A stretch of DNA of 64,000 nucleotides from Candidatus Thermosaccharophagus yellowstonensis (GTDB taxonomy: Bacteria; Armatimonadota; Fervidibacteria; Fervidibacterales; Thermosaccharophagaceae). Within the stretch, counting starts at the first letter, position 1. The number at the start of each line of letters is the position of its first letter. Both the position numbers and the translations under genes were made by a program. This document shows positions 1,977-60,445 of this stretch, piece after piece. The DNA lies in assembly GCA_041537945.1 (NCBI GenBank), contig JBGOEK010000002.1, forward strand, positions 46,005-110,004. Reading direction: 5' to 3'. The notes under the pieces were generated by a model. That model ran no database searches. It was not told where the DNA came from and saw only the letters and a program-made list of their open reading frames with translations.

Positions 1977-4976
1977 GTGCGGGTTAGATCCGCTTTAGCA
2001 TTACTGGTATTCATAGCCCACAGTTGTTGCTGGGCTATAACAAGGGTTAGCTCAACAAAGGTTGTGGCGAGCTCACCAGCAATCGATGCACAGCCATGTT
2101 TCTCTGGCGACGGTAGCAAGCTCGCATTCGTCTCAGGAAGGGATGGCAAGAACGAGATATGGATGATTGACCTTACAACTGGCGATTTGAAAAAGCTCGT
2201 GCATTGTGAATCTGTGGGCGAGTTCGCCACCAAACCATCGTTGGCACGAGATGCGGAGTTGCTTTCCTTCGTGAGCAATCGTTCGGGCAACATCGATGTT
2301 TGGATGCTTGAGCTGACAACTGGCAAGCTATACCAACTCACAGATTCGCCGGGCATCGACTGGATGCCCGCCATATCACCAGATGGCAAGAGGGTGGCTT
2401 TCGTCTCCGACAGGGACGGTGTGGATGCCATATGGATGCTTGAACTCGGCGATGAGAAGAGGCTTTTTAAGCTCCGAAACAACGCTTGGGATCCAGCATG
2501 GTCTCCAGATGGGAAGCGTTTGGCGTTCGTCTCTGGCGATGGTGATGAAAGGGGCATATGGGTCATGGACATATCCGAACGAACCGAGAAACTCATATTG
2601 CAAGGTGGTAGTTCTCCATCTTGGTCTCCAGACGGTGAATGGCTTTGCGCTGTCAGGCGAAAGGGAAAGGCTTACGAATTGGTCATAGTCAGTGCTGATG
2701 GGAGCGTATGCAGGACGCTCCCCATCCCCTTTGAGGAGCCATCATCACCATGTTGGTCACCGAAGGGCGATCTGATAGCTTGCGATGCACTTGTCGGTGG
2801 CAACAGAGAGGTAATCCTCATACAGCTTGAGAGGCTTTTGCCATACGCAAAGATAACATCGCCAAAGGAGGGCGAGCGCGTTGAAGGCGTAGTCAGTGTT
2901 AGGGCAACTCTCAAAGTCCACCATGGGAATGTGAAACGCATATCGCTTGAGTATGGGCTCGGTCTGAAGCCGAGCGATTGGACACCATTGGATGTTAAAG
3001 TGTCAGAGAGATTCAGCGAGTTGAGCGATGAGCCGATAGCTTCTTTGGATACAACCCAGATAAGCGGTGCGCTCACCTTGCGCTTACGCGTTTACGATGA
3101 GGAGGACGATGTTGGTGAAGACAGGGTGACAGTGTTTTCGGAGAGAGTTTATGGTGTCCAGTATGTTGAGCACACAGTGCCAGAGGAGATGGTCACCTCA
3201 GACTCAGTCCAAGTCATATTGAAGCTACGCAACATCGGGAAGCTCACATGGCAACCGTCTGGTAGATTTGCAGTTACGCTCTCCTATCGCTGGAGGGATG
3301 CGGAAGGCAATGTTGTGCTTCGTGGTGGTCACTTCAACATCCCGAAGGTCGTGAACGAGTCCGAGGAAGTTCAAGTTGTAGCTACAGTTGTTGCGCCTGC
3401 TGAGGCTGGTAGCTACACGCTTGAGTGGGACTTGTGTCATGGTGGCGCCATATGGTTTTCAGAAGAGGGTTGCCAAACGCTTATGATCCCGGTGCGCGTT
3501 GTGAGGCGCTATGCTGCACAAGTCATATGGCATAACACACCTCGTGATATGGTTCCAAGCCAAACATACACAATCAGGGTGAAGCTACGCAACACTGGTG
3601 CAATGCCATGGAACACAAAGGATGCGAAGGAGAAGGTCTTCCTCTCATATCACTGGCTTGATCAGCAGGGCGCAAAGCTTGATGAGCAACCGATAATGAA
3701 CTTGATTGAGGAACAGGTGAAAGCGGGCGATACAGTTGAAGTTGTAGCGAGAGTGCGTTCGCCATCTGTTGTGGGTGAGTATAAGCTTGTGTGGGATATG
3801 CTCATTCAAGGTCAAGGGAACACGCAAAGCTGGTTCTCCGATATGGGGAGTAAGTTTGAAGCCCATCAGGTGAGCGTCAAAGCGCCTTACTCGGTATCAT
3901 ACCTTTGGCACAACACACCAACGACGATGCTACCTGGTCAAATTTACCTTGTGAACTTGCGCCTCAAGAACGAGGGGGCACTCGTCTGGGAGAGCAAGGG
4001 GATAAGAAGGGTTTGCGTGATCTATCGGTGGGTTGACGAGAGCGGAAAGAGCATTTCAGTGCCGACGATTGAGACACCGATGCCATACGATGTCATGCCC
4101 GGAGAAACAGTTGAAGTTGCCGCGAGAATCCAAGCACCGCCTGTAGCTGGAAACTATACACTACACTGGGATTTGCTTAAGGGAGGGAACGCGCTTTTCT
4201 CCAACATGGGTTCTCCGACGCTTAAAGTCGATGTGATGGTTCAGCGCCAAACATGCGTTGCTGAGTTCCAAGTGCTTTCGCACCCCACAACGATGGTAGC
4301 AGGATACGAGTATGAGGTTGAGATCACGATTTTAAATCGCGGCACAATGACATGGCTCGCTAACGGTGAGCGACCAGTGACATTAAGCTACTGCTGGCTC
4401 GATGAGAACGGGAACGAACTTAAAGATGTAGTGCAACTTAGGACACCTCTACCGAGGGATGTGAGGTTTGGTGAATCAGTGAAGGTCAAAGCGAGGGTTT
4501 GCGCCCCAAGGCTCACTGGCAAGTGGACATTGCGTTGGGATCTGTATATGGAAGGGATGGGTTGGTTCGGGAAGGTCGGCTCTCCAACGCTGAATGTCCC
4601 AGTGAATGTCACCGCTGAATATGACTACGAAGTTATATCGCATGATATTCCGAGCGAGTTCATCAGCGGGCAAGTCTACACCTTGAGGATACGGCTGTGC
4701 AACAGAAGCGCATTCACATGGCGTGCAACTGGCGATGAGATAACGCAACTCGGATGCAAGTGGCTTGATGAGAAAGGGTTCGTTGTTGAGAGCTCCATCA
4801 TTGCCAGCGTGCCAAAAGACATTCAGCCAAACGAAACGGTTGAGTTTGAAGTCACGCTACACTCGCCTAAGAAGGCTGGAACTTACACGCTCAAGTTGGA
4901 CATGGTGTATATGCGCAAAATATGGTTTGAGGAAAAAGGCGCTCAACCGCTATCCTTGCAAGTCCGCGTCAAATAA
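1977..4976 (+). CDS. Secreted TolB-like (PD40/WD40-like) beta-propeller protein fused to an Ig-like domain and five tandem Trp-rich FW/NBR1-like domains
   Basis: Signal-peptide-like N-terminus (MRVRSALALLVFIAHSCCWA). Six PD40-type blades are visible (e.g. SGDGSKLAFVSGRDGKNEIWMIDL, SPDGKRVAFVSDRDGVDAIWMLEL, SPDGKRLAFVSGDGDERGIWVMDI). These are followed by five repeats of about 120 aa. Confidence 0.8.
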   Translation: MRVRSALALLVFIAHSCCWAITRVSSTKVVASSPAIDAQPCFSGDGSKLAFVSGRDGKNEIWMIDLTTGDLKKLVHCESVGEFATKPSLARDAELLSFVSNRSGNIDVWMLELTTGKLYQLTDSPGIDWMPAISPDGKRVAFVSDRDGVDAIWMLELGDEKRLFKLRNNAWDPAWSPDGKRLAFVSGDGDERGIWVMDISERTEKLILQGGSSPSWSPDGEWLCAVRRKGKAYELVIVSADGSVCRTLPIPFEEPSSPCWSPKGDLIACDALVGGNREVILIQLERLLPYAKITSPKEGERVEGVVSVRATLKVHHGNVKRISLEYGLGLKPSDWTPLDVKVSERFSELSDEPIASLDTTQISGALTLRLRVYDEEDDVGEDRVTVFSERVYGVQYVEHTVPEEMVTSDSVQVILKLRNIGKLTWQPSGRFAVTLSYRWRDAEGNVVLRGGHFNIPKVVNESEEVQVVATVVAPAEAGSYTLEWDLCHGGAIWFSEEGCQTLMIPVRVVRRYAAQVIWHNTPRDMVPSQTYTIRVKLRNTGAMPWNTKDAKEKVFLSYHWLDQQGAKLDEQPIMNLIEEQVKAGDTVEVVARVRSPSVVGEYKLVWDMLIQGQGNTQSWFSDMGSKFEAHQVSVKAPYSVSYLWHNTPTTMLPGQIYLVNLRLKNEGALVWESKGIRRVCVIYRWVDESGKSISVPTIETPMPYDVMPGETVEVAARIQAPPVAGNYTLHWDLLKGGNALFSNMGSPTLKVDVMVQRQTCVAEFQVLSHPTTMVAGYEYEVEITILNRGTMTWLANGERPVTLSYCWLDENGNELKDVVQLRTPLPRDVRFGESVKVKARVCAPRLTGKWTLRWDLYMEGMGWFGKVGSPTLNVPVNVTAEYDYEVISHDIPSEFISGQVYTLRIRLCNRSAFTWRATGDEITQLGCKWLDEKGFVVESSIIASVPKDIQPNETVEFEVTLHSPKKAGTYTLKLDMVYMRKIWFEEKGAQPLSLQVRVK
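3151..4973 (+). repeat. Five tandem protein-level domain repeats (units start at 3151, 3510, 3888, 4254, 4620)
   Basis: Each unit follows Y.....WH.TP..M..G..Y.V.L.L.N.G...W.......V.LSY.W.D..G.........P..V.PGETVEV.A.V.AP...G.Y.L.WD....G..WF...G...L...V.V. The units are divergent at the nucleotide level. Confidence 0.8.
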
Positions 4977-5018
4977 TGCATGAGCAACGGAAGACCTCAT
5001 GAACGAGGTGGGAGGATC

Positions 5019-6149: not shown

Positions 6150-7156
6150 TGAGGCATGAGGTTAGCAAGGTTGGGCGGGATGTGGGCAAGAGGATGGCTT
6201 TAACATTGCTCGTTGTCTTGCTGTCCTTCTCACAGGCTATCAAAGCTGACCAGAGGCAAGCGCTTGCAAAGAGGGCGATCATTATCACAGTTGATGGGCT
6301 TGGCTCATGGGTGCTTAAAGAGGCGGATGCACCAAACCTTCGTTGGCTCATGAACAACGGTTGCTACTCACTCAAAGCTGAAACTGTTGACCCACCTGCA
6401 ACATTGCCTGCACATGTCTCGCTCTTTACAGCCGTCCCACCATCCGTTCATGGCTTTGACTTTGATACCTACATCCCTGAGAGGGGATATGTGCAACGCC
6501 GAACGCTCTTTGCGTATGCGAAGGCTGTGGGAATGAAAACAGCGATGGTGGTTGGCAAAAAGAAACTCATGCACCTCGCTAACCCGAAGTGGGTTGACTA
6601 TGCGCCACAGATCAAAGAAGCGAACGCTACCAAAGTAACATCTGTTGCGCTTGATTACCTGAGGCGTGCTCAACCGCAACTGCTCTTCATTCACATGCCA
6701 GACCCAGATTGGCTCGGACACAAATACGGTTGGGGAAGCAAAGCACAGCTTGCTTCCGTTACGGAGTGCGATAAGAACATTGGCACGATCATAAAGGCGC
6801 TGAGCGAAATGAAGATGTGGGAAGATTTGTTGCTCGTAGTGACGGCAGACCATGGTGGTGAAGGCAGATGGCACTACGGCAACAGCGAAAAGGTCAAGCT
6901 GATACCGTTCATTGCATCTGGTGGCGCAATGAAGTTGCGAGGTGAGCTGAACTGCCTAATCTCGATTTGCGATATCGCTCCTATAGTCGCTTTAGCGCTT
7001 TCCTTGCCCGTCCCAAAAGAATGGGAAGAGAGAGCGATAAAGGTGATGCCCGCACTTCGTGATGTTAGAGCTTCAAACCTGCCACGCAAACCCCTTAAGG
7101 CATCGCTTCAGATGCCGAAGCGGGCAACCGCGCATTTCACAGTGTCATCAAAATGA
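6146..7156 (+). CDS. Alkaline-phosphatase-superfamily protein (type I phosphodiesterase/nucleotide pyrophosphatase-like), secreted
   Basis: IIITVDGLGSWVL, TLPAHVSLFTAVPPSVHG, IHMPDPDWLGHKYGWGS and VTADHGG match the metal-ligand blocks of the Phosphodiest family. The N-terminus is hydrophobic. The start overlaps the htrA stop (ATGA-type junction). Confidence 0.75.
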   Translation: MMRHEVSKVGRDVGKRMALTLLVVLLSFSQAIKADQRQALAKRAIIITVDGLGSWVLKEADAPNLRWLMNNGCYSLKAETVDPPATLPAHVSLFTAVPPSVHGFDFDTYIPERGYVQRRTLFAYAKAVGMKTAMVVGKKKLMHLANPKWVDYAPQIKEANATKVTSVALDYLRRAQPQLLFIHMPDPDWLGHKYGWGSKAQLASVTECDKNIGTIIKALSEMKMWEDLLLVVTADHGGEGRWHYGNSEKVKLIPFIASGGAMKLRGELNCLISICDIAPIVALALSLPVPKEWEERAIKVMPALRDVRASNLPRKPLKASLQMPKRATAHFTVSSK

Positions 7157-7219
7157 TGTGTCAAAGTGCGTTCATCTTGCTCTCGCCAAATCTCGCGTCC
7201 ACAGAGCTTTTAGAAAGGT

Positions 7220-8596
7220 GTGATGCGAATGATTCGGACGATGATGCTCAGCGCCTTCCTTCTCTTCGCTACGATTGTGAGCTTCAATGTATGTGTAGCA
7301 GTCTCAGTGCGTCAAGGTGTTTTACAACGAAGCGAAGTTTGGGGGAGCAAGGACAGCCCTATACGAATTGATGGCGAGTTGCGCATACCGAAGGGTATCA
7401 CGCTAACTATAGAGCCAGATGTCACTGTTGAGTTTGGTGAGAGGGGTAGCATAGTCGTCATGGGCGAGCTGAGAGCCATCGGAACAGCTACAAAGCCAAT
7501 TTTGTTCAAAGGTGCAAGCGAGGACTTGTGGAAGAGGGGCGCTGTCACAGGCATAATCGTTTCTGGCACGGCGAGACCAGCCGATGAACTCGGAAAGAAA
7601 GGGACCTCGTTCAAATACTGCGTGTTCAGGCATTTGAGACAGCCTTTGAACGCTGAGGCGAAAGTTTATGTTGGCTACTGCTGGTTTGAAGATGTTGGCT
7701 CACTTAACAAGCTCGAGTTCGCTGTCACGCTACGCTCTGGTGTGATTGAATTCTCGCGCATAAGGAGATGCGGTATGGGCGCTCTCATGCTTGGTGAAGA
7801 TGCCGTTGGACGCTATTGCCTTATTGAAGATGGGCTTGCAGATGCCATTGGTGGCGATGCATACCTTGAGCACTGCACGATACGCAACTTCAAGCGATTT
7901 GCGCTATCCGAGGTGGGCAAATCGTTTGAGCTCTTCTGGTGTCATGTGAGCAAGTGCGGAACATTAGCAGGCTTGCCAAACGCTGAAGGGCGTTTCCCGA
8001 GGATCGTGCTTGAGGATGTGACGATAACGGACATGGGTGAAGAACAAGGTTGGGGCGCAATACATATCCGTAAAAGCCCAGCGCCTAACGAAAGACTCCT
8101 CAAGATAAACACACGGAGCAACTGCAACAGAGTTATCTCGAAAGTGTTGATAAGCGACTCCGTTGGCGGAATTGAAATAGTTGCCCAACAGATATGGTGG
8201 GGGAAGAGCAATCCCGACACCAGTGATGAGAGCTTGTTTCAAGGTGCAGGGAGCAAGTTCAACATCTTCCCAGTCATACCCGCCGATCCATACCTGCAAC
8301 GCATGTCGCACGAAGGGGTTGTGGTTGATGCGGAGGGAAACCTCGTAGCTGATGCGATGGTGTGGGTTCTTGATTCACGCACATCTCCGTCATCAACAAA
8401 TGAAGACGGTATCTTCAGGATAGATGGTTCTGTGCCGGGCGTTTACACGCTCTGCGCGTATCGCCCTTGGGTTGGTGAGGGGTGCGCAACAGCGGACTGG
8501 GCGTTTGCTGGCGAAGTATGTCGCACAATGGGGTTTGCAAAGGGCAAACAAGAAGCACTGGTCATAAGGCTTTCAGGTAAATCACAAAGGCAATAG
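7220..8596 (+). CDS. Secreted protein with right-handed beta-helix-like region and C-terminal carboxypeptidase-regulatory-like domain
   Basis: Signal peptide (MMRMIRTMMLSAFLLFATIVSFNVCVA). GITLTIEPDVTVEFGERGSIVVMGELRAIGTATKPILFKG is typical of the entry to PbH1-type beta-helices. C-terminal GVVVDAEGNLVADAMVWVL...NEDGIFRIDGSVPGVYTLCAY matches the CarboxypepD_reg pattern. Confidence 0.55.
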   Translation: MMRMIRTMMLSAFLLFATIVSFNVCVAVSVRQGVLQRSEVWGSKDSPIRIDGELRIPKGITLTIEPDVTVEFGERGSIVVMGELRAIGTATKPILFKGASEDLWKRGAVTGIIVSGTARPADELGKKGTSFKYCVFRHLRQPLNAEAKVYVGYCWFEDVGSLNKLEFAVTLRSGVIEFSRIRRCGMGALMLGEDAVGRYCLIEDGLADAIGGDAYLEHCTIRNFKRFALSEVGKSFELFWCHVSKCGTLAGLPNAEGRFPRIVLEDVTITDMGEEQGWGAIHIRKSPAPNERLLKINTRSNCNRVISKVLISDSVGGIEIVAQQIWWGKSNPDTSDESLFQGAGSKFNIFPVIPADPYLQRMSHEGVVVDAEGNLVADAMVWVLDSRTSPSSTNEDGIFRIDGSVPGVYTLCAYRPWVGEGCATADWAFAGEVCRTMGFAKGKQEALVIRLSGKSQRQ

Positions 8597-8678: not shown

Positions 8679-11393
8679 GTGATGAGGCTTCGTTGCCTAA
8701 GCGGTAAAGGCATCGCATTATTTGTCTTCATCTCCCTTGCCTTAAACATGGTGTTGCTTCATGGCGTTGCAATCGCTGGGACTGCTGATGAGGATTTCGC
8801 CTTCGCCGTTCGGTTGTATCAGAAGGAGGAGTTAGAGCTCGCAATCGAGGAGTTTGAAAAATTCGTGAAACAACACAGAGACGATGAGCGCATACCAGAA
8901 GCTCTTATCGTTCTTGGGGACTGCTACTTCAGGTTGAAACGCTATGAGCAAGCGTTGAAAGCTTTTCAGAGCGCTGCAAAGGAAGCCTCGGTCAGAGGCA
9001 GAGCTGATGTTGAGGCAAGGGCAACATACTGGGTCGGAGAATCTTACTACCAGATGCGCAAGTATGATGAGGCGATAAATTGGTATGAGATGGTGCTTAA
9101 GAAGTTCCCCAAAGGCGTTGAAGCACCTTATGCGCTCTATTCGCTTGGCTTGGCTATGCGTGAACTCGGGAAGAAGGAGGAGGCGCTCTCATATTTCAAG
9201 CGCTGTGTGGAGGCTTTCCCAGAGAGCGATGTTGCACCGCAATGTCAATGGCTTATTGGTGAATGCCTTCTTGACCTGAAGCGCTATGAGGAGGCTAAGA
9301 GGGCATACGAGGAAGTGTTGAAGCGCTACCCGAAGTCAAAGGAAGTCGCAGACGCCCTCTTGGGGCTTGGGTGGGTCAGCTTCGAACAAGGGAATTACGA
9401 GGAGGCTGCAAAGCTTTTCAACGATGTCGCCAGACATCACCCTGATACTCAGGCTGGCAAAGAAGCTGTTGTCAGGGAAGCCGATTGCTATTTCAACCTC
9501 AAGCGCTACGAACAGGCTCTTGAGCTCTACAGGAAGGTAGCCGACAGCAGGGAAAACCCATTTGCCGACCATGCCATCTACTGGAGTGGGCAATGCCTTC
9601 TGCGCATGAAGCAACCGCAAGCTGCAGCAACCCAGTTCTTGCTCCTCATAAGAGCTATGCCCAATTCGCCATATGTTGCGAGGGCATACTCAGCACTCGG
9701 AGAAGCATACATGGCGATGGAAAGGTTTCAAGAAGCCGAAGAAGCGTTCAAGGTGGCTCTCAAGCATGTTAAGGAGCAAAAGGAAGCCTCACTCATAACT
9801 GCCACCCTCGCCGACTGCCTGCTTAAGCAAGGAAAGTTTGATGAAGCCTCAAAACTCGTTGTTGAACTGCTCAAAGGGATGCCCGAAGATAAAAACATCA
9901 AAGCGCTTGTTGCCACCTTGATGAGACAGCTGGCTCAGGTTGGCGATATCAACATGCTCGCAAAGCTGATTGAGGGCGTGAAACCCACAGAAGAGGTGCT
10001 GGAAGAAGTGGCGTTAGCTTTGTTTGAGAGGGGCAAGAAGGCTTACGAGAACAAGGACTATGAGACTGCCGAACGCATTTACAAACTTTTGCTTGAGCGC
10101 TTCCAGAAGACGAGTGTCACTTCGGCAGTTCTCTTTGCGCTCGGTGCTGTGCATTATGTCCGTGAACGATATGGCGATGCTGAAGCAATCTATGCGGAGC
10201 TCTTAAAGCGCTTCCCCGATGACAAATTCGCACCCGAGGCACACTACTGGCGTGCAAATTCTCTCTGGATGCTTAAGCGCTTCGCCGAAGCACATGATGA
10301 GTTCTCCGCTTTCATCAAATCTGGATCAAAGGACGAGGCTAAAATCGTAACAGCGCTCTACAGGGACGGGCTTTGCCTTTATGAGTTGAAGCGGTTTGAA
10401 GAGGCTATATCGAGGTTTGAGCTACTGCTGAAGGAGCATCCAAATTCTGAACTTTGCGATGATGCACTCTACCAACTGAGCTGGGTCTATATAGACGCAG
10501 ACAAACGAGATAGCGCGATGAACGCGCTCAAGAGGCTGATAGAACAGCACAAGCAAAGCCAATATGTGCCAGAGGCTCATTTCCTCATAGGCGAGTTATT
10601 GCTGATGCGAAAGCAAGCTGATGAAGCCGTTGCACATTACGAGGAATGCATCAAGCTCTCGTCAGGCAAGGACGAGGAGTTATGCGGTAAGGCGTATTAC
10701 AGGTATGGCTGGGCGCTCTTGACGCTGAAGCGAAAAGCCGAAGCGCTCAAAGCGTTTGAGGAGGCTCTAAAAAGACAGCTACCCGACGATGTAAAGGCTG
10801 ACGCCATTTTGCAGGTTGGTTACCTGCAGTTTAATGAGCGCAAGTTCAACGAGGCATTGTCTTCATTTGAGCGTTTGCTCAAAGAGCATCCACAATCCCC
10901 TCTTTCCAAATTCGCTCTCCTATACAAAGGCAAATGCTTGAACGAGCTTAACAAGTTCGCCGAAGCTGAAGCTGTGCTACAGCAGTTGATTGAGAAGTAT
11001 CCGAACGAAGCGTTCATACCGAGTGCGAAGTTTGAGCTTGCATGGGCTAAGCAGAACAGGAAGCAATATGACACAGCCATTGAGCTATACAAAAGCGTTG
11101 CATCATCTGAGGGGGCTGGCGAGTTAGCCGTTGAGGCACAGTTTAGGGTGGGCGAATGCATGCTATCAAAGGGCGACACGAAAGAAGCGCTGAGGGAGTT
11201 TTTGAGGGTAGCCCTGCTTTACGAAGATTTGCCAGAGTGGGCTGCTGCTTCGCATTTCTATGCGGGGCTGTGTTATGAGCAACTCGGTGAAAATGAGAAA
11301 GCCGAAAAGGCTTACAGGACAGTGCTTGAGAAGTATCCACAAACGAAGTGGGCGGAGAAGGCTAAGGAGTGCCTGAAGAAGCTTAACAGGTGA
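8679..11393 (+). CDS. Large tetratricopeptide-repeat protein with YbgF/CpoB-like TPR units, N-terminal signal/anchor
   Basis: 904 aa. The N-terminus is hydrophobic (GIALFVFISLALNMVLLHGVAIAG). More than 15 TPR-like units follow, of the form A.Y..GECY...K.Y.EA...F......P.S..A..A.Y..G. Confidence 0.85.
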   Translation: MMRLRCLSGKGIALFVFISLALNMVLLHGVAIAGTADEDFAFAVRLYQKEELELAIEEFEKFVKQHRDDERIPEALIVLGDCYFRLKRYEQALKAFQSAAKEASVRGRADVEARATYWVGESYYQMRKYDEAINWYEMVLKKFPKGVEAPYALYSLGLAMRELGKKEEALSYFKRCVEAFPESDVAPQCQWLIGECLLDLKRYEEAKRAYEEVLKRYPKSKEVADALLGLGWVSFEQGNYEEAAKLFNDVARHHPDTQAGKEAVVREADCYFNLKRYEQALELYRKVADSRENPFADHAIYWSGQCLLRMKQPQAAATQFLLLIRAMPNSPYVARAYSALGEAYMAMERFQEAEEAFKVALKHVKEQKEASLITATLADCLLKQGKFDEASKLVVELLKGMPEDKNIKALVATLMRQLAQVGDINMLAKLIEGVKPTEEVLEEVALALFERGKKAYENKDYETAERIYKLLLERFQKTSVTSAVLFALGAVHYVRERYGDAEAIYAELLKRFPDDKFAPEAHYWRANSLWMLKRFAEAHDEFSAFIKSGSKDEAKIVTALYRDGLCLYELKRFEEAISRFELLLKEHPNSELCDDALYQLSWVYIDADKRDSAMNALKRLIEQHKQSQYVPEAHFLIGELLLMRKQADEAVAHYEECIKLSSGKDEELCGKAYYRYGWALLTLKRKAEALKAFEEALKRQLPDDVKADAILQVGYLQFNERKFNEALSSFERLLKEHPQSPLSKFALLYKGKCLNELNKFAEAEAVLQQLIEKYPNEAFIPSAKFELAWAKQNRKQYDTAIELYKSVASSEGAGELAVEAQFRVGECMLSKGDTKEALREFLRVALLYEDLPEWAAASHFYAGLCYEQLGENEKAEKAYRTVLEKYPQTKWAEKAKECLKKLNR

Positions 11394-11427: not shown

Positions 11428-12081
11428 ATGAGCAGTGTGATTGAATTCATCATGAGGGGAGGACCGTTTGAGCTTGTGCTCTTGGTTTGCTCAATAGTCA
11501 TGGTCGCTCTCTTCCTTGAGCGCCTATGGACATACCACATCATCGCACGCAAAAATCGCATCGTCAAGAAGGAAGTCGAAGAGGCACTGAAGCGTGGCAT
11601 GGTGAACGATGTGCTGAGGGCTTGCGAAGCCAATATTAGCACTGTAGGGGCAGTGGTAGCAGCTGGATTGCGTAGGATGCACATGGGAGTTGAGGTCATG
11701 CAGGATGCGATGAACTTTGCGATTGCCTCAGCACAGTCGTTCCTTGAGAAGTATCTTGTCTGGCTTTCAACGATTGCGACTATAGCGCCACTCCTCGGTT
11801 TCCTTGGGACTGTCTCAGGGTTATACAAGGCTTTCGTCCAAGTCACTGTCTATGGGCTTGGAGACCCAACGAAGTTCGCAGCAGGTGTCGCTGAGGCTTT
11901 AATAACGACTCTCACAGGACTTGTGATAGCCATACCAGCAAACCTCGCTTACAATTACTTCATCAACAAAGTTGATGCCTTCGCAATTGAGATGGAAGCT
12001 GTAGCGAGGGAACTGATAGAACTGCAACAGGCTACGGCTCTTCAAGGGGCAGGTGACAAAAGTGCGGTTGCAACGAAGTAG
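11428..12081 (+). CDS. MotA/TolQ/ExbB-family proton channel protein
   Basis: 217 aa with three predicted TM segments. The C-terminal half, LSTIATIAPLLGFLGTVSGLYKAF...GVAEALITTLTGLVIAIPANLAYNYF, is the conserved MotA_ExbB core. Confidence 0.9.
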   Translation: MSSVIEFIMRGGPFELVLLVCSIVMVALFLERLWTYHIIARKNRIVKKEVEEALKRGMVNDVLRACEANISTVGAVVAAGLRRMHMGVEVMQDAMNFAIASAQSFLEKYLVWLSTIATIAPLLGFLGTVSGLYKAFVQVTVYGLGDPTKFAAGVAEALITTLTGLVIAIPANLAYNYFINKVDAFAIEMEAVARELIELQQATALQGAGDKSAVATK

Positions 12082-12499
12082 TAGGAGGATTACGCCAACG
12101 ATACCGATGGTGACGATGTCCGACGTAGCTTTCTTGCTCATCATATTCTTCCTGCTGACAACCACATTCTCGCGAGATACAGGCTTGAAGCTGAAGCTTC
12201 CTGGCGCACTGTCGCCACAGCCGATAAAGCCACAGGAAATAACAATCCGCATAACCGCAGACAGGCAAATCTATGTGGATGACCAACCTGTCCTACCTTC
12301 GCAACTTGAAGGTGTGCTGAGAAAAAGGATAAGCGAGACTGGCGTGAGGGAAGTGACAATCCGTGGTGACGCTGAAATACCATACTGGGTAGCCGTCGCC
12401 GTCATGGATACGGTGAAGAGGGTCGGGGCGAGAGTTGCAGCAATAGCTGCAGAACCTGTCCCAAGGATTGAATGGGAACGATGGGAGAGAAAGAGATAG
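12053..12499 (+). CDS. ExbD/TolR-family biopolymer transport protein
   Basis: The basic N-terminus is followed by ITPTIPMVTMSDVAFLLIIFFLLTTTF (ExbD TM signature with the conserved Asp), then a periplasmic domain (ITIRITADRQIYVDDQPV...). It overlaps the exbB-like gene by 29 nt. The exact start is uncertain (GTG 12053 or 12062). Confidence 0.88.
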   Translation: MTKVRLQRSSRRITPTIPMVTMSDVAFLLIIFFLLTTTFSRDTGLKLKLPGALSPQPIKPQEITIRITADRQIYVDDQPVLPSQLEGVLRKRISETGVREVTIRGDAEIPYWVAVAVMDTVKRVGARVAAIAAEPVPRIEWERWERKR

Positions 12500-12615
12500 C
12501 ACTGCTCCATGTGTGTTGGAACAGCTAAGAACACTCGCTGAAGAACACGCAACCACAAAGACAGCAAAAGCCTCTTAATGGGTGAAGCGCAAAGCCTCGG
12601 CAAAAGGGTGATGGA

Positions 12616-15150
12616 TTGGCTATGAGCAAACTGCAACTTATAAACGGCTTAAGTTACACATCAACGCTTTCTCGACAGGCTGATATACGCCTGCTCAAAT
12701 GCGTTTTGCTTTCCATGTTCTTACACACGGCGCTATTACCACTTGGCGCAATTCAGTTTGGTGGTGTGCAGTTCCGACAAAGGGAATCAGTCATAAGGGT
12801 TGAGATTGAGCAACTGGAAAGCGAGCCGATATACAAGCAACCAGTGGAAAGCAAGCGGGAAGTTGAAAAGAAGGCAATTGCTCAAGAGCCAATTAAAGCG
12901 CCCCAAGTGGCTTCGAGAAGAGTTGTGCAACCAAGACATGCGATCGCACCAGTAAGCAGTAGGAAACCACCAGTCGTTCAGCAGGCGTTTAAGGAAGCTG
13001 TGCCACACCACTTTAGACAGCCTGCTCAACAACCAGAGGAAGGCATCGTTGAGCATGAACAAAAGCGTGTTGCAGTCCGCCCGCGAGTTGAGCCTGCATT
13101 ACCCGAACAGCCAAGCTTTGAAGTGCCAGCTCAAAAACCTGAGAGGACGGAAGAGCAATTGGTGGCGCAAAGGTTGCGTGAGCAACCAACAAGCAAACTC
13201 ATGCCGTCTTTTGGGCAAGAGCACTTGACGATGCGCCAAGACATCATACCAACGCAGGCAGAGTTACCATCATCCAAGCAAACTACATCAAGAGTTGTTG
13301 AGGTTGCCCGCTCGCTGACGAAGATGACTGCCAAGCCTGAGGCAACCATTTCTTCACCGATGACGCTACCAAATGTTTCAGGCATAGGCGTTGAGAGGAG
13401 ACCCGGAGTTACAGCACCAGCACCGCAAGAGGATGAGCTTGTGCGCATCGCTGAAGCTCCATCTGGGAAGCTTGGCTACCCAGCGCAGAAAGAACTGCCG
13501 AAGGCGATGAGGGCGCCAATCGCGATGGATGTAGTCCCACCTGGCAAAGGCGGAGCAAAGCAGGCAGGAGAGTTTGATGTAGGTGGTGGCTCTGGTGCTC
13601 ACGGTCCTCAAAAGATGATGATAGGGAGACCGACAGGAAGCGGGGTGGGCTTATCGCAACCGCGTCCGATGGCGTTTGGCTCTGGAACTGCAACAGAGGG
13701 TGGTGGGCGTATCGGGAGCACTTTGCTTGACCAATTGATTGGCGCGTTGCGTCCTTCGGAAAGCGTCTCTGGAGTTGGTGAAGGATATGGAGGCAGAGGT
13801 GGCGATAAACTTCGTCCGGGCAGGTTCGTTGGTGCGGGCGAGTTGCTACAAGGGCGTGGGAAGCCAACAGTTGGTGGCTTTGGTGGCATAGGCGGTGGTG
13901 GCGCGGGAATAGGTGAAGGCGCAGGTGCAGGCACTGGCGCAGGCGCTGGTCCGGGCGCATTCGGTATGCCTCGCTCGCCATCGCGAGGTAGTGGCACTGG
14001 AATTGGTGGCGAAGGCGTTGGCGCACCGCAACTCATCGGTCAGCCAGAACAAGGTGGCGGTGGAACTGGCACTGGCACATCAGGCAAAGGCTATGGGAGT
14101 GGTGGCGGATATGTTTCTGGCACAGGTCCGTTTGCTGGTGGAGGTGGAGTCGGCTCAGTAGGGCGCGGTGGTGGCGGTGGCATGAAAGCCACCCCGGGCG
14201 CACCAGCGATAGGCTTTGGTGGTGATGTATCTGGCTATCGCAAAGGCGTTAAGGCAGGAGGTGGTAGTGGGCTTGGCGAGCCACCGCAAGGGACTTCACC
14301 GAAAGGGCTCTTGGAACACCCCGCAGGTAAAGGCACTCGGACAACGCCCTCTACAGGTGAGCGTCCTCAACCAGTTTCAGGTGGCGGTGGAAATGTCTCT
14401 GGCACGAGTAGGATCGGCACTGGAACATACGGGACGCCTATAAAGCGTGAAGATGTGGGAAGGCAAGTCAGGTTTACCACGATACCAGAGTCAACTGAGG
14501 GTGGCTTGTTTACGAACATAGGCGGTGAGTTCATGCGCCAACCAGTCATAGCTATCGTTGATAAGTCAAACTGGGATGTGCATATCAACAGGGTGCACAA
14601 TGTCTTGCGAGAGCTTAACAGGCGCACAAAGATACGCACCCTTGAAGTCGAAAGGAAAATCCCGTTGACACTTGAGGCGATCAAAGATGTGCCGATACTC
14701 TTCTTCTACGGTGAGGAAGCTTTTGAGCTGACAGAAGAAGAGGCGCAAGCGTTGCGTGAATATGTTCGTCTTGGCGGAACAATCTATGGCGACAGCTCAC
14801 ATGGTCCGTTTGATGTGTCTTTCATGCGCCAGATGTGCAAAGTGTTTGGGAAACGGTTGTCCGACTGGGAAGAACTGCCGATATCGCATCCGATCTTCAA
14901 TGCCTTCTACAAGATAAACGCTGTCCCGCCCGGAGACCTCGGTGAAGATTACCCCGTTCTGGGTCTGAACATTGATGGCAGACACGCGGTCATCTACTCA
15001 CGCAACGACTACAGCGATGTGATATGTGACCATCACCCGGGCAAGATCGCCCCACCAATACCGCCACAGGTTAAAGAGCTTGCCATACGCTTCAACATCA
15101 ACATCGTCGTTTACGCACTCAAGCACTGGCAGGAGAAGCGAGCAAGATAA
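12616..15150 (+). CDS. TonB/TolA-like membrane-anchored protein: SxxxH TM helix, Pro/Gln/Glu-rich spacer, long Gly-rich tract, C-terminal DUF4159-like domain
   Basis: There is a single N-terminal TM, LLKCVLLSMFLHTALLPLGAI, containing S-x3-H. A Pro-rich segment follows (QPVESKREVEKKAIAQEPIKAPQVASRRVVQPRH...), then a Gly-rich tract. The C-terminus, IKDVPILFFYGEEAFELTEEEAQALREYVRLGGTIYGDSSHGPFDVSFMRQMCKVF...HPIFNAFY...GRHAVIYSRNDYSD, fits my recollection of the DUF4159 pattern. Confidence 0.75.
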   Translation: MAMSKLQLINGLSYTSTLSRQADIRLLKCVLLSMFLHTALLPLGAIQFGGVQFRQRESVIRVEIEQLESEPIYKQPVESKREVEKKAIAQEPIKAPQVASRRVVQPRHAIAPVSSRKPPVVQQAFKEAVPHHFRQPAQQPEEGIVEHEQKRVAVRPRVEPALPEQPSFEVPAQKPERTEEQLVAQRLREQPTSKLMPSFGQEHLTMRQDIIPTQAELPSSKQTTSRVVEVARSLTKMTAKPEATISSPMTLPNVSGIGVERRPGVTAPAPQEDELVRIAEAPSGKLGYPAQKELPKAMRAPIAMDVVPPGKGGAKQAGEFDVGGGSGAHGPQKMMIGRPTGSGVGLSQPRPMAFGSGTATEGGGRIGSTLLDQLIGALRPSESVSGVGEGYGGRGGDKLRPGRFVGAGELLQGRGKPTVGGFGGIGGGGAGIGEGAGAGTGAGAGPGAFGMPRSPSRGSGTGIGGEGVGAPQLIGQPEQGGGGTGTGTSGKGYGSGGGYVSGTGPFAGGGGVGSVGRGGGGGMKATPGAPAIGFGGDVSGYRKGVKAGGGSGLGEPPQGTSPKGLLEHPAGKGTRTTPSTGERPQPVSGGGGNVSGTSRIGTGTYGTPIKREDVGRQVRFTTIPESTEGGLFTNIGGEFMRQPVIAIVDKSNWDVHINRVHNVLRELNRRTKIRTLEVERKIPLTLEAIKDVPILFFYGEEAFELTEEEAQALREYVRLGGTIYGDSSHGPFDVSFMRQMCKVFGKRLSDWEELPISHPIFNAFYKINAVPPGDLGEDYPVLGLNIDGRHAVIYSRNDYSDVICDHHPGKIAPPIPPQVKELAIRFNINIVVYALKHWQEKRAR
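13581..14400 (+). repeat. Glycine-rich low-complexity coding tract (GGN-codon rich) inside the 12616-15150 gene
   Basis: Translated text includes GGFGGIGGGGAGIGEGAGAGTGAGAGPGAFG, GGGGTGTGTSGKGYGSGGGYVSGTGPFAGGGGVGSVGRGGGGG and similar runs. It produces long Pro-rich shadow ORFs on the minus strand. Confidence 0.85.
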
Positions 15151-15222: not shown

Positions 15223-15951
15223 TCAAATTTGCAAAAGCTTGCGGGCGTTCCCTCCGAGTATCAGCGCCTCATCCTGTGGCGATAACGACAATAGCTTTAT
15301 TTTCTGCAGTTCGAGCGCCGGATGAAGCAAAGGACCGTCAGAGCCAAAGAGAATCTTTGTTGGACCTGCATGCATAACCGCTTCGTAGAGGTAATCAAAG
15401 AAGCGGACGCCAGAGGTGTCGGCATAGATGTTTTCATACCGTGAGAGCAAATACGGCATGAATTGAAACACGCGCCAGTCATCGGAGAAACTCCCAAGAT
15501 GAGCTACGACAAATGTCACATCGCTAAACTCGGATGCAAGTAAAGGTAGCACTTCAACTTTGCCAGCTACATCCACAAGTATTGGCAAACCCATCGCGGA
15601 AGCAACCTCACACAGCTCCCTCGTTGGTAGAGACTCTGAGGCATGAACCTTAATCCCTTTAAAGCCATACTCTTCAACGGCTTTCCTGAGCATGCGCTCA
15701 ATCTTGCCAGCGTCCCTTCTCGGATGTATCCGTGCGAAGCCGATGAGCCTACCCTCATGCTTTGAAACCACTTGCGCGACTTCGGCATTTGCACGCTCGT
15801 AGTTCTCGCTCGTTATCGCGAAGACGACCGTCCTATCAATTCCAGCTTGCTCGGCTCTCTCAAGGTATAGCTCAATGCTCGCCCTCGTCGTCCAAGGAGC
15901 TTGCAACTCTTCTCCACTCCCAACATGGCAGTGGAAGTCAATGACCATCAT
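15223..15951 (-). CDS. Amidohydrolase-family metal-dependent hydrolase (TIM-barrel, Amidohydro_2-like)
   Basis: MMVIDFHCHVGSG (HxH metal motif), GIKVHA, VAHLG and LFGSDGP. I prefer the internal ATG at 15951, which is preceded by GGAGGTGAG and lies 20 nt after the upstream gene stop. The track ORF extends to 16047 and would overlap that gene. Confidence 0.75.
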   Translation of the reverse strand: MMVIDFHCHVGSGEELQAPWTTRASIELYLERAEQAGIDRTVVFAITSENYERANAEVAQVVSKHEGRLIGFARIHPRRDAGKIERMLRKAVEEYGFKGIKVHASESLPTRELCEVASAMGLPILVDVAGKVEVLPLLASEFSDVTFVVAHLGSFSDDWRVFQFMPYLLSRYENIYADTSGVRFFDYLYEAVMHAGPTKILFGSDGPLLHPALELQKIKLLSLSPQDEALILGGNARKLLQI

Positions 15952-15970
15952 TGGCTCACCTCCGAGTCTT

Positions 15971-16978
15971 TCATTGCGTTTCGAACTCGCGTTCAACCCA
16001 CTTGAAAATGGCTTCGTAAAGTGAAACGACACAGAAGACGATGCCAACTGCTATGGCGATATGCGCTATGGCAAGCTGAAGCACAATTGATAGCCAAAGG
16101 ATGCTTTGCATCCGCTTCTTCCTCTCGTTTGCTATGTGCATCAGTGTGCTGGATATCGTTCCCGTCTTCTCACCCGTGTGAAGCGATGACCTTTCCGATG
16201 GACTGAAAAGGGTTGAGAGCGCCTCGGACAAGCTTCTTCCAGATTGGACAGCCCTGACTGCAGCAACTGCCCTCGCCTTCAACATCGGCACATCAATAGC
16301 TTCAGAACTTACCTCTAACGCCTGATGCGCACTCATGCCCGCCTCAAGCGCTTGAGCAAGCACGAGTGAGAAGTTGGCAATCGCCCTGTGAACTATCGCA
16401 CCACCGAAGATCGGGATAGTTGAGGTGAGTTGCCTGATGAGAGAGCTAACCTTTGGCACTCGTGAAAGCGAGCGCAGAAAACACATCAGCAACCAGATTG
16501 AAAGCAAAGCTGGCAGGATACGCTTTAGCGCCAAAGAGAGATACCACTGAAAACCCTCAAGCAAAGCGTTTGGCAGTGGTAGGACGAAAACCAGAGCCAA
16601 TATGCACACGCTCAAATAAAGCCTGCTCCACCTCCATTTGCGTTGCCATGCAGATTCAAACTCATACTGCTCGGCAGTGAATGAGAGCATCCTTGCAAGC
16701 CCTCCTGTGAGTTCGCCAACCTTCACCATACCGATGAGCCAATCATCGATGAAGAGGCGTGAGCTTAACATTGCTTCCGAAAGCCCCTTGCCAGAAGCGC
16801 ACTCATTTGCAAGCAACCTATAGATGTTGCGCATCCTCCTGCTTGACGATGTTTCTTGAAGCATCTTCAATGCCTCGTATGGTGTCATGCCAGAATGCAA
16901 AGCTGCGCTTAGCTGGCGAAGCATCATGGCTATATCATCTTTGCGGAGATGCCCTCGTAGCATTAGCGCCATACTCAT
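15971..16978 (-). CDS. Type II secretion / type IV pilus platform protein F family (GspF/PilC-like), isolated from other secretion genes
   Basis: Two T2SSF-like repeats are present: LRQLSAALHSGMTPYEALKMLQE...GKGLSEAM...MVKVGELTGGLARML and ANFSLVLAQALEAGMSAHQALEVSSEAI...VQSGRSLSEAL...LHTGEKTGTISSTL. TM segments lie between and after them. The ATG at 16978 follows AAGGTGAGG; the track ORF starts with GTG at 17008. Confidence 0.7.
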   Translation of the reverse strand: MSMALMLRGHLRKDDIAMMLRQLSAALHSGMTPYEALKMLQETSSSRRMRNIYRLLANECASGKGLSEAMLSSRLFIDDWLIGMVKVGELTGGLARMLSFTAEQYEFESAWQRKWRWSRLYLSVCILALVFVLPLPNALLEGFQWYLSLALKRILPALLSIWLLMCFLRSLSRVPKVSSLIRQLTSTIPIFGGAIVHRAIANFSLVLAQALEAGMSAHQALEVSSEAIDVPMLKARAVAAVRAVQSGRSLSEALSTLFSPSERSSLHTGEKTGTISSTLMHIANERKKRMQSILWLSIVLQLAIAHIAIAVGIVFCVVSLYEAIFKWVEREFETQ

Positions 16979-17130
16979 TACCTCACCTTGCCTTAGCCGT
17001 ATCGGCACAGTTGATAGACATTGAACTGGCGCATCAGCGTTTGCAAAATGTTAGTGTGCTTCACCGTGCGCTCGCAAACTATCATGAGGCTATCTTGTTC
17101 GGACTCAAAAGCTTGCGAGGTGAATAGGAA

Positions 17131-55410: not shown

Positions 55411-55550
55411 GAAGGACAACAAAGAAGCACTATGAAAGCCAAAGCTTTCATGCTGTTACACTTTATGCTGGATGCTCATTCTCGTTTGTGAGATAGCATT
55501 TTGAAGCAGCAACTAACATGACACCGCACGGCACAGGAGATGAAGCAACG

Positions 55551-59132: not shown

Positions 59133-59160
59133 GCACATCATGCAGTGTGCGTGATGACTC

Positions 59161-60366: not shown

Positions 60367-60380
60367 AGCGCAAACAGCGC

Positions 60381-60409
60381 TTGACAGGAGCTGACTAAGC
60401 GACTAAATT
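60381..60409 (+). promoter_or_regulatory. Putative sigma-70 promoter (TTGACA-N17-TAAATT) for the 60446 gene
   Basis: TTGACA lies at 60381-60386, followed by a 17-nt spacer and TAAATT at 60404-60409. The RBS AAGGGGGGTGAAGG lies before the ATG at 60446. Confidence 0.5.
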
Positions 60410-60445
60410 ATAGAAGGTGCACCCAGCAAGGGGGGTGAAGGATTT

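Follow-up and report, generated by a model that had tools for sequence, protein, structure and literature searches.

A DUF4159-headed candidate force transducer encoded beside an ExbB/ExbD-type motor in Armatimonadota

Introduction

Proton-driven force transduction through the periplasm was for decades a matter of TonB and TolA only, until a class of transducers headed by a vWA domain was proposed in 2025. In PVC bacteria, the proteins of this class combine a transmembrane helix carrying the SHLS signature, with its His35, a motor box, a linker and a C-terminal vWA domain, and their genes are placed downstream of a TPR-tolQ-tolR-tolR set (PMC12204202, Williams-Jones et al. 2025). The same study found the motor box in 93% of 113 validated TolA sequences, while further analysis suggests that it is present in all TonBs (PMC12204202). 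The vWA-headed transducers of the PVC TPR-tolQ-tolR modules are the closest published case for the gene described here, which belongs to a phylum of diderm Terrabacteria from which no Tol-Pal is known. The C-terminal domain of its product, DUF4159, has a solved structure, and a search of the literature for 'DUF4159' and 'PF13709' found these names only in the Pfam 2016 paper, and no described function for the domain.

Results

The gene and the architecture of its product

The gene lies in a window of 64,000 nucleotides, the whole stretch of DNA that was analysed, from Candidatus Thermosaccharophagus yellowstonensis (Table 1). Its open reading frame, 12616..15150 on the + strand, begins with a TTG that is the earliest possible start; the true start is most likely the ATG at 12622, because orthologues align from that methionine (P0001 begins MSKLQ) and because a Shine-Dalgarno-like motif, GGGTGA, stands about 10 nt upstream. 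The product, 3.5 times longer than E. coli TonB (239 aa), is made, in that order, of a hydrophobic helix, a variable Pro/Gln/Glu/Lys-rich stretch, a Gly tract and a C-terminal DUF4159 domain. A sequence-only reading had described a chimeric architecture, in which a biased spacer and a long Gly-rich segment precede a DUF4159-like end. This layout is recovered both in the composition of the protein (residues 51-300 are enriched in E, R, Q, V, P and K) and by Pfam, but the idea of a one-off chimera has to be given up, as the protein belongs to a conserved family: the uninterrupted architecture recurs in many representatives of clusters at 50% identity, and the independent assemblies that have it number more than 25. 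A word-index search with the full-length protein gave only six close orthologues, the Gly-rich words having saturated the candidates, and the head alone gave one match; the wider family set was obtained by an exhaustive search of representatives, and related loci were found with an alignment of seven head sequences.

Long antisense open reading frames overlap the gene. Scanning for promoters and terminators gave counts at the level of shuffled sequence, with no + strand terminator between exbD and the transducer gene, and the anti-phage defence models of PADLOC gave no relevant match.

Table 1. Positions, in the window, of the transducer-like gene, of the parts of its product (residues of the 842-aa form) and of neighbouring genes
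Feature	Position	Strand	Remarks
999-aa PD40 β-propeller and Ig-like protein	1977..4976	+	TolB-like propeller repeats; heads the same-strand block in Fervidibacteria
904-aa exported TPR protein	8679..11393	+	repeated YbgF/CpoB-like TPR units; co-conserved with motor and transducer
ExbB/TolQ-like gene, 217 aa	11428..12081	+	Pfam MotA_ExbB, 95 bits; 29-nt overlap with exbD
ExbD/TolR-like gene, 148 aa	12053..12499	+	Pfam ExbD, 100 bits; membrane Asp24 at 12122-12124
Transducer-like protein gene	12622..15150	+	842 aa; 844 aa if read from the TTG at 12616
Single transmembrane helix, residues 24-46, with Ser31 and His35	12691..12759	+	predicted by hydropathy; Ser/His invariance
Motor-box-like amphipathic β-strand motif ESVIRVEIEQ, residues 55-64	12784..12813	+	about 20 residues past His35
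Variable Pro/Gln/Glu/Lys/Val-rich part of domain II, residues 67-200	12820..13221	+	14% Pro; orthologue identity 0.34-0.41
Conserved non-Gly linker segment, residues 201-300	13222..13521	+	identity 0.63-0.71
Gly-rich tract, residues 301-556	13522..14289	+	256 residues, 37% Gly; identity 0.78-0.82
Variable Gly/Pro/Thr/Ser junction, residues 557-612	14290..14457	+	identity 0.40-0.51, indels
C-terminal globular domain, residues 613-842	14458..15147	+	Pfam DUF4159 match at 14563-15120

The anchor helix and the motor-box-like motif

The codons of an S-M-F-L-H motif, with Ser at 12712-12714 and His at 12724-12726, are found exactly where the sequence-only reading had placed them, within what is indeed the sole predicted transmembrane helix, no other hydrophobic 19-mer exceeding KD 1.5. 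That reading had proposed to ask whether orthologues retain the pair: it is invariant in the six of them, and it is kept in 19/19 of the Armatimonadota/WS1 genes that have complete N-termini. When the N-termini of 26 divergent members are aligned, with a mean column identity of 29%, the S and H columns are the only invariant ones, and the pair, judging from this alignment, is not due to chance. Remoter DUF4159-anchored proteins sometimes have Ala or Thr in place of the Ser; the His is always kept. It had also been remarked that only the S-x3-H part of the SHLS signature is visible, and this is so: the helix departs from the full register S-x3-H-x6-L-x3-S, since H+7 is Gly42, with Leu41 at +6, and H+11 is Phe46, and there are no conserved L or S columns among the 26 members. 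Set against the sequences of the PDB, the N-terminal profile of the family aligned with S18/H22 of E. coli TolA in the same register, at a non-significant E of 0.4-2, and the helix of a light-harvesting α chain outscored TolA.

Past the helix, the segment VIRVEIEQ (V57-Q64) is invariant in orthologues, and distant members display equivalent alternating hydrophobic motifs at the same distance, such as AVEFVTFV or PIKFVKII. A full-length AF2 model built with the six orthologues (pLDDT 31.8) gives no confident strand in this region and is uninformative on the linker and the Gly tract. As for topology, counting charges around the helix reveals no clear bias (K+R per residue 0.21 on the N side vs 0.19 on the C side). 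Most of the other DUF4159 proteins (103/132) begin with a signal-peptide-like segment, which argues indirectly for an extracytoplasmic location of the domain.

The linker and the Gly-rich tract

The conserved segment that precedes the Gly tract contains the motifs QAELPSS... and LPNV.G.G.ERRPGV..PAPQEDE. In the tract itself the share of Gly, taken per 50-residue block over residues 301-550, is 26-44%, and the G+C content of the Gly-rich coding sequence rises to 0.59-0.62 vs ~0.50. Among orthologues Gly is retained at 88/93 positions, the non-Gly positions are 0.70 identical, there are few or no indels, and some 60% of the conserved residues differ in codon from one orthologue to another. The aligned orthologues thus reveal a strong position-specific constraint, unlike the way a spacer evolves, and because of this constraint a simple rope model does not account for the tract. 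An origin by tandem repetition was considered and rejected, only one 49-nt micro-repeat of the GAGAGT type being found. The sequence-only reading had proposed that a spacer of this length could span a wide periplasm: this fits what is known of a cultured relative, Fervidibacter sacchari, which is diderm with a periplasm of 55.5±3.5 nm by cryo-EM (PMC11535203), if we may extend to the present organism what was measured in its relative.

The C-terminal domain

Pfam DUF4159 (PF13709) matches residues 650-835 of the 844-aa reading with E=1.8e-28 (99.9 bits, cutoff 25.9). The closest structure is PDB 4i66 (phmmer, E=1.7e-16). AF2 models the domain as a well-folded α/β unit (pLDDT 86.8), and a Foldseek search, which had been recommended with the sequence-only reading, also matched 4i66 (E=1.2e-12, TM 0.71/0.80); the following matches are weak (TM ~0.4 for glutaminase domains) and belong mostly to class-I glutaminase, ThuA-like and flavodoxin-like domains. 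The suggestion that DUF4159 adopts a fold of the class I glutamine-amidotransferase type agrees with Pfam, where PF13709 is assigned to clan CL0014 (Glutaminase I) for reasons of structure alone. A catalytic Cys-His-Glu triad was sought in an alignment of 16 transducer heads, which has no invariant Cys, His or Glu; the nucleophile-elbow position is occupied by S, C or T in these heads and by Ala in 4i66. The heads of the transducer clade have motifs of their own, PxGD and a mostly conserved SRNDY, that are not shared by 4i66. Neither TonB_C (PF03544/TIGR01352) nor TonB_2 nor TolA matched the protein at E<=0.01 in Pfam or NCBIfam. Elsewhere DUF4159 is found in secreted giants together with VWA/BatA-like domains and in stand-alone exported proteins.

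A conserved module of five genes

The sequence-only reading made no mention of the ExbB/ExbD-like genes that lie directly upstream. For the ExbB-like protein the best NCBIfam model is TolQ (89 bits, below cutoff), and TolQ chains are its top matches in the PDB (55 bits, as against 49 bits for ExbB); the ExbD-like protein is best matched by TolR, again below cutoff, and its Asp24 aligns with the ExbD Asp of PDB 7ajq. With this membrane Asp, and with the ExbB/TolQ motifs GTVxG and AEALITT kept, the motor looks functional. The YbgF/CpoB model matched the TPR protein ten times. Against the TolB model TIGR02800 the propeller neighbours score 247-272 bits, short of the cutoff (343), and the stretches that match best cover the propeller portion of the model only (from about position 196).

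This arrangement is found well beyond the window. ExbB and ExbD genes stand directly upstream of the transducer gene in 19/19 Armatimonadota/WS1 loci having upstream DNA, a TPR gene of ~900 aa comes ahead of ExbB in the 17/17 loci that could be assessed, and a TolB-like propeller gene adjoins the module in 17 loci; in Armatimonadota outside Fervidibacteria the latter codes for ~345 aa and is directly beside the module. Three more metagenomic loci (L033, L034 and L036) share the gene order with the motor upstream, the TPR gene again preceding ExbB in L033 and L036; L036, although a DUF4159 locus, has two tandem ExbD genes, as in the vWA module. Anchored DUF4159 genes also exist away from any adjoining motor (P0031 and P0158), which is common for tonB too. 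In two Planctomycetota loci ExbB-ExbD genes lie beside DUF4159 proteins devoid of an anchor, so that the association of DUF4159 with the motor may not always run via the SxxxH helix.

Across loci, only the TPR, ExbB, ExbD and PD40 genes are co-conserved with the transducer gene. Outside Fervidibacteria, none of the genes examined ahead of the TPR gene is conserved, those identified coding for variable CAZymes and other enzymes; the module often has genes for glycoside hydrolases or lyases at its flanks, which differ by locus. No gene for a TonB-dependent transporter or other outer-membrane channel is co-conserved in the module neighbourhoods. Searches with single E. coli sequences as queries found no TonB_C in any of the loci and no Pal/OmpA_C-like open reading frame in their 574 kb, the latter search being of low sensitivity. 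The module recurs across the phylum Armatimonadota, and we found no earlier description of it in the literature.

Discussion

A force transducer with another head

We propose to understand the protein, from comparisons made at the level of sequence, as a TonB/TolA-type periplasmic force transducer the output domain of which is DUF4159 instead of TonB_C or TolA_C, and we give this reading a probability of about 0.72. It is favoured by the presence of S-x3-H in the only transmembrane helix, invariant among divergent members; by the synteny with the motor, the TPR gene and the propeller gene; by a motor that looks functional, a motor-box-like motif and a Pro-rich, biased domain II; by a C-terminal domain that is well folded and, judging from most relatives, extracytoplasmic; by the published precedent of the PVC bacteria; and by the wide periplasm of a diderm relative. 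In such a machine the N-terminal helix would dock, by its Ser31/His35 face, against the rim of a proton channel of the ExbB5-ExbD2 type, formed by the products of the two upstream genes, with protons flowing via Asp24 of ExbD. The periplasmic domain of ExbD might then grip the short β-strand motif past the helix, and a pull or a rotation would be carried along a domain II of ~570 residues, Pro-rich then Gly-rich and of a length suited to a periplasm of ~55 nm, up to the DUF4159 domain. The latter may hold a partner at or near the outer membrane, for which the TPR protein of 900 aa and the TolB-like β-propeller are candidates. Several observations go against this proposal: the L and S of SHLS are out of register and the N-terminal profile finds TolA only at non-significant E values; charge bias is not decisive and the full-length model is of very low confidence; the C-terminal domain resembles neither TonB_C nor TolA_C; P0031 and P0158 are away from a motor, and the two Planctomycetota loci have DUF4159 without an anchor; finally, the constraint on the Gly tract is not accounted for by a simple rope.

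What the module might do

It is possible, although we would not wager on it, that Armatimonadota have in this module their counterpart of Tol-Pal, where the protein would act as TolA, with a CpoB-like TPR protein and a TolB-like propeller, in stabilising or constricting the outer membrane and coordinating peptidoglycan remodelling in a phylum without Pal. The gene shows strict linkage to its motor, a property of tolA that tonB mostly lacks (PMC12204202); the motor proteins are best matched by the TolQ and TolR models; and the TolB-like and CpoB-like resemblances of the two other neighbours point the same way. Furthermore, curated Tol-Pal systems are confined to Gracilicutes (PMC12204202), so that a diderm terrabacterium would need another solution. 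However, every score against a Tol model is under its curated cutoff, the N-terminal domain of TolB, which contacts TolA, is apparently missing from the propellers, nothing like Pal came out of a search of limited sensitivity, the C-terminal domain is unrelated to domain III of TolA, and TPR and PD40 domains are generic. An unlikelier role would be that of a TonB-like energiser of uptake or secretion through the outer membrane, of polysaccharide fragments for example, with DUF4159 acting on a channel. The anchor, motor-box-like motif and Pro-rich linker are TonB-like, the Fervidibacteria are polysaccharide specialists (PMC11535203) and glycoside hydrolase or lyase genes are frequent flanking genes. 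Yet these CAZyme genes change from locus to locus and no transporter or channel gene goes with the module; moreover, TonB has been reported in Armatimonadetes, going by a citation in PMC12204202, so that a canonical TonB may already serve. The main text of the Fimbriimonas genome paper makes no mention of TonB.

The helix could also be a mere anchor, holding in the periplasm an enzyme or scaffold of the GATase-I-like or Bat-like kind, with a regulatory or coincidental link to ExbBD. The clan to which DUF4159 belongs, the structural matches that follow 4i66 and the existence of DUF4159 in giants with VWA/BatA-like domains or as a stand-alone exported protein would accommodate this; we nevertheless regard it as improbable, since the heads lack a conserved triad, 4i66 having Ala at the elbow, since, in a passive anchor, a His embedded in the membrane would not have stayed one of the only two residues to be invariant among such divergent members, and since synteny with the motor at 19/19 loci is not coincidental. 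Finally, low-complexity, Gly-rich coding sequence with raised G+C, overlapped by long antisense frames, could raise the suspicion of a mis-called or mis-assembled frame, in which a small membrane protein, low-complexity DNA and a DUF4159 gene have been wrongly joined. This is effectively refuted by conservation, the same architecture being present in independent assemblies and codon-level comparison indicating purifying selection over the whole length, and we hold an artefact to be extremely improbable.

Comparison with known systems

With TonB the putative transducer shares a presumed topology class, an S-x3-H anchor, a β-strand-like motif past the helix, an extended Pro-containing linker and a motor of the ExbB/ExbD type; it differs by the lack of TonB_C, by the L and S of SHLS being off register, by its strict linkage to the motor and by neighbourhoods where no TonB-dependent transporter is seen. 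With TolA the likeness is in the order motor-motor-transducer, in the TolQ and TolR models that best describe the motor and in the TolB-like and CpoB-like TPR genes nearby. E. coli TolA likewise has Gly-rich segments on either side of its domain II. Unlike the TolA system, the one described here has no TolA C-terminal domain, no Pal that we could find and propellers apparently without the TolB N-terminal domain. The head is a clear member of PF13709, as is Hoch_4089 of Haliangium ochraceum (PDB 4i66), but the latter was crystallised as a stand-alone domain of ~200 residues, whereas in the present protein, which is anchored in the membrane and linked to a motor, it forms the tip.

A vWA module locus of the published type (L038) was recovered, and the order TPR, tolQ-like, tolR-like, transducer is the same here; the ExbB of the window is 36% identical (82 bits) to that of a vWA module, while ExbD does not have this closeness. 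Domain II, with its constrained Gly tract, runs to ~570 residues here but to ~100 there, and there is one ExbD gene in place of two; the Tichowtungia transducer has no Pfam match to DUF4159 or VWA, and Armatimonadota (Terrabacteria) are not among the phyla listed in PMC12204202. The two heads are of different families: homology of the DUF4159 head with the vWA head was looked for and not found, the hhalign probability against the Tichowtungia head being 4%, and the 50 PDB matches that Foldseek lists for the DUF4159 head include no vWA domain.

DUF4159 may thus be a further head for such transducers, and the domain, through its place in a conserved five-gene module, is for the first time given a concrete functional setting; this suggests that 5:2 motors power a wider range of envelope processes via interchangeable heads. 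A bolder conjecture, to which we lend somewhat less credence than to a Tol-Pal counterpart as such, would make of TPR-ExbB-ExbD-DUF4159-(TolB-like propeller) an unrecognised, phylum-wide envelope machine of Armatimonadota, a terrabacterial functional analogue of Tol-Pal without Pal, with DUF4159 as a new force-receiving head and a Gly tract that is structured or self-associating (polyglycine-II-like or peptidoglycan-engaging, for example), adapted to the ~55 nm periplasm. Being cultured, Fervidibacter sacchari is a testable system for the transfer of force over an unusually wide periplasm, while the sequence-constrained Gly tract is a biophysical puzzle of its own.

Architecture of the probable transducer and its anchor

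It is probable, at roughly 0.7 in our estimation, that the transducer gene, which closes a block of genes on the same strand (see the table), encodes a PMF-coupled periplasmic force transducer. A helix carrying S31 and H35 would dock onto an ExbB5ExbD2-type motor, ExbD would engage a strand at residues 55-64, and the resulting pull would pass along the long domain II, the linker between helix and head, to the C-terminal DUF4159 head, which may hold a partner at the outer membrane or the wall. The sequence-only reading had proposed an open reading frame at 12616..15150 (+), coding for 844 aa. The frame is real, but its likelier start is ATG 12622, giving 842 aa, since it is where orthologues begin and is preceded at about 10 nt by a GGGTGA motif. 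The codons previously assigned to Ser (12712-12714) and His (12724-12726) are exact, and the one TM helix then predicted is recovered as a single hydrophobic helix, residues ~24-46, containing S31-M-F-L-H35. What had been seen as a P/Q/E/K/V-rich spacer is an E/R/Q/V/P/K-rich region (residues 51-300), the long Gly-rich segment that follows (residues 301-556) contains 37% Gly, and the DUF4159-like end matches Pfam DUF4159 (PF13709) with 99.9 bits (cutoff 25.9). The layout described as chimeric is confirmed, but as that of a conserved family and not of a one-off chimera; the earlier interpretation is supported overall, and to it are added the setting beside motor genes and a constraint on the Gly tract that is stronger than expected.

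Coordinates of the gene block and of the regions of the transducer (identities are mean pairwise values for Fervidibacteria orthologues whose overall identity is ~66%)
Feature	Position	Strand	Remark
PD40 β-propeller/Ig protein, 999 aa	1977-4976	+	
HtrA-like protease	4980-6149	+	
Phosphodiesterase, type I	6146-7156	+	
CarboxypepD_reg protein	7220-8596	+	
TPR protein, 904 aa	8679-11393	+	YbgF/CpoB model matches ten times
MotA_ExbB protein	11428-12081	+	best NCBIfam model TolQ, below cutoff
ExbD protein	12053-12499	+	best NCBIfam model TolR, below cutoff
Transducer gene	12622-15150	+	
Pro/Gln/Glu/Lys stretch	residues 67-200		identity 0.41
Linker segment	residues 201-300		identity 0.71
Gly tract	residues 301-556		identity 0.82
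Post-Gly-tract segment	residues 557-612		identity 0.51
Head	residues 613-842		identity 0.87

Close orthologues (65-99% identity) come from Fervidibacterota/Armatimonadota MAGs. When the head was used as query in an exhaustive HMMER search, 1399 DUF4159 cluster representatives were obtained, many of the closest being proteins of 700-1000 aa in which an N-terminal S-x3-H helix is followed by Pro-rich and Gly-rich regions and a terminal DUF4159; an [STA]xxxH anchor is present in roughly 45 of the best 149 of these 1399. Relatives in named genomes belong to Ca. Thermosaccharophagus (Fervidibacteria), Ca. Zipacnadia, Armatimonadia and WS1.

In the N-terminal alignment of 26 divergent members, where mean column identity is 29%, Ser and His are the sole invariant columns; among remoter anchored DUF4159 proteins of ~400-450 aa (Verrucomicrobiota-type), Ser may be replaced by Ala or Thr while His is always kept. 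Every member displays an alternating hydrophobic motif ~20-30 residues past the His, VIRVEIEQ in the window, where it is invariant among orthologues, and AVEFVTFV, PIKFVKII or similar elsewhere. By position and character this motif would be the equivalent of the β-strand known in TolA and TonB as the "motor box" (PMC12204202). Of the SHLS motif (S-x3-H-x6-L-x3-S), L and S are out of register in the transducer. A search of the PDB with the family profile brings up E. coli TolA in the S18/H22 register, with an E-value (0.4-2) that is non-significant for so short a helix. The charge bias across the helix does not decide topology; indirect support for a head lying outside the cytoplasm comes from the signal-peptide-like segment with which 103 of 132 other DUF4159 proteins start.

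The shorter anchored proteins (~400-450 aa), which combine a TMH with [STA]xxxH, a Pro-rich linker of ~150 residues and DUF4159, include P0065, P0071, P0087-P0090, P0094, P0119 (Chthoniobacterales MEO8206322.1) and P0142, with loci L031/L032. Their helix, with the pattern IS-x3-H-x2-LI-x3-G-[ST]-x-V, is similar to the one found in the Kiritimatiellota vWA transducers of loci L037/L038, and the sole gene of this class that was checked, P0158, has no adjoining motor. Another representative, P0028 (1308 aa; its cluster includes Armatimonadota HET6384125.1), places a presumably cytoplasmic N-terminal extension of ~125 residues (MAQLQEPLVARYLSGQMSSQEMDEFEKRLAAEPALWDE...) before its SxxxH helix; the extension is reminiscent of the zinc-finger region of an anti-sigma factor, but Pfam gave DUF4159 alone.

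A conserved motor module

Homologues of ExbB and ExbD lie immediately 5' of the transducer gene in all 19 loci with upstream DNA, preceded by a TPR gene of ~900 aa in 17 of 17 assessable loci. A propeller gene of ~345 aa adjoins the module in 17 loci; TolB is the model that it fits best (247-272 bits, cutoff 343), and the matches listed cover the propeller part of that model only. Beside these four genes, no other was co-conserved among the loci examined. In the window, ExbD retains its membrane Asp (D24) and ExbB the GTVxG and AEALITT motifs of ExbB/TolQ. An untranslated gap of 122 nt (12500-12621) separates exbD from the transducer gene, and a scan of this interval found no terminator-like site on the + strand. 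Read from its first start codon (GTG 12053), exbD shares 29 nt (12053-12081) with the 3' end of exbB.

The order of the module recurs in three of four further metagenomic loci, one having two tandem ExbD genes: at L036:5338-9610, TPR-ExbB-ExbD-ExbD precede the DUF4159 transducer P0066 (869 aa), the tandem pair being a feature described for the vWA transducer module. In two Planctomycetota MAGs (L029:3890-11242 (+) and L030:2307-5990 (+)), ExbB-ExbD lie directly 5' of giant DUF4159 proteins, one of 2450 aa in L029 that includes BatA-like VWA and choice-of-anchor domains and one of 1227 aa in L030; both start with signal-peptide-like segments, and a search of the first 400 residues of each found no SxxxH in a hydrophobic context. 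As the motor genes stand there beside unanchored giants, the association of DUF4159 with motors may reach beyond anchored transducers.

A constrained glycine tract

The Gly tract is almost as conserved as the folded head. When the gene is compared codon by codon with each of two orthologues, Gly is retained at 88/93 and 89/94 positions, the other positions of the tract are 0.70 identical and indels are few or none, while ~60% of the conserved residues use a different codon, which implies that synonymous sites are near saturation. This combination shows position-specific constraint on the tract, for which a simple spacer model does not account. Residues 301-556 do not form a tandem repeat. Motifs of the G-F-G, G-Y-G and R-G-G types recur along the tract (window 13522-14289), examples being VGGFGGIGGGG, AIGFGGDVSGYRKG, GYGSGGGY and GYGGRGG. 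Distant members do not keep the sequence but stay Gly-rich, with about 18-30% Gly from anchor to head in most long members. For the full-length protein, AF2 gave no informative model. Domain II totals ~570 residues, and its length may be tied to the wide periplasm (55.5±3.5 nm) of the cultured diderm relative F. sacchari (PMC11535203).

The DUF4159 head

Sequence comparison relates the head to PDB 4i66 (Hoch_4089; E=1.7e-16), and its AF2 model from a 16-sequence alignment, a confident one (pLDDT 86.8, pTM 0.87), superposes on the same structure in Foldseek (E=1.2e-12, TM 0.71/0.80). The next matches (E≈2e-3 to 2e-2, TM~0.4) are mostly CTP-synthase/GMP-synthase glutaminase, ThuA-like and flavodoxin-like domains. 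The class I glutamine-amidotransferase-like fold proposed for DUF4159 in the sequence-only reading agrees with its place in the Pfam Glutaminase I clan (CL0014), to which it is assigned by structural similarity alone. The alignment of 16 heads contains no invariant Cys, His or Glu, hence no catalytic triad, and we treat the head as a putative binding module, not as an enzyme. Within the literature that could be searched, the Pfam database paper alone mentions "DUF4159" and "PF13709".

Relation to known transducers and possible roles

The closest known system is that of the vWA force transducers (Williams-Jones et al., 2025), in which a TMH with SHLS/His35 is accompanied by a motor box, a domain II of ~100 residues and a C-terminal domain of vWA fold (PMC12204202). 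They share the logic and the module order of the window genes, but belong to another phylum and differ in linker length and in the family of the head. We recovered two related metagenomic loci of the vWA type, ordered TPR-ExbB-ExbD-ExbD-transducer-transducer. The head of the Tichowtungia vWA transducer (sequence from the supplement of PMC12204202) matches neither DUF4159 nor VWA in Pfam and has no profile similarity to DUF4159 heads (hhalign probability 4%); no vWA entry figures among the 50 listed Foldseek matches of the window head. With the ExbB of the vWA module, the window ExbB shares 36% identity (82 bits), against 55 bits for TolQ and 49 bits for ExbB among PDB chains; this may point to a common motor lineage, but is a trend that ExbD does not share. 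Lacking the C-terminal domains of TonB and TolA, the window protein falls outside both families.

What such a transducer would serve is a matter of graded likelihood. A Tol-like role in envelope maintenance, tentative as it is, fits the synteny best. The co-conserved TPR protein and the TolB-like propeller are the first candidates for the partner of the head. Curated Tol-Pal has been reported in Gracilicutes only (PMC12204202), and no Pal-like or TonB_C-like ORF appeared in 574 kb of related loci, searched with single-sequence queries of low sensitivity. A role in uptake is less supported and appears doubtful; TonB in Armatimonadetes is the subject of earlier reports (cited in PMC12204202). 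That the protein would act passively, as an enzyme or a scaffold, strikes us as quite unlikely, and an active force transducer is the reading that we retain.

Surroundings of the module

The rest of the window that was examined (52441-63300) has ordinary chromosomal content: a clostripain-family (C11) protein of 989 aa, SMC, a radical-SAM/SPASM protein and DnaG primase; neither TonB_C nor a TonB-dependent transporter was found among the ORFs scanned there. At 15223-17008 (-), two genes converge with the transducer gene: an Amidohydro_2 gene and, standing alone, a T2SS protein-F-like gene with two T2SSF domains. The pair is syntenic in the related loci L001-L003; no further secretion or pilus genes were identified among the adjacent ORFs examined. 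In Fervidibacteria (window 1977-8596, L001-L003), the PD40/Ig, HtrA-like, phosphodiesterase and CarboxypepD_reg genes extend the module upstream on the same strand, and a CarboxypepD_reg gene also lies 5' of the TPR gene in an unrelated metagenomic locus, L033.
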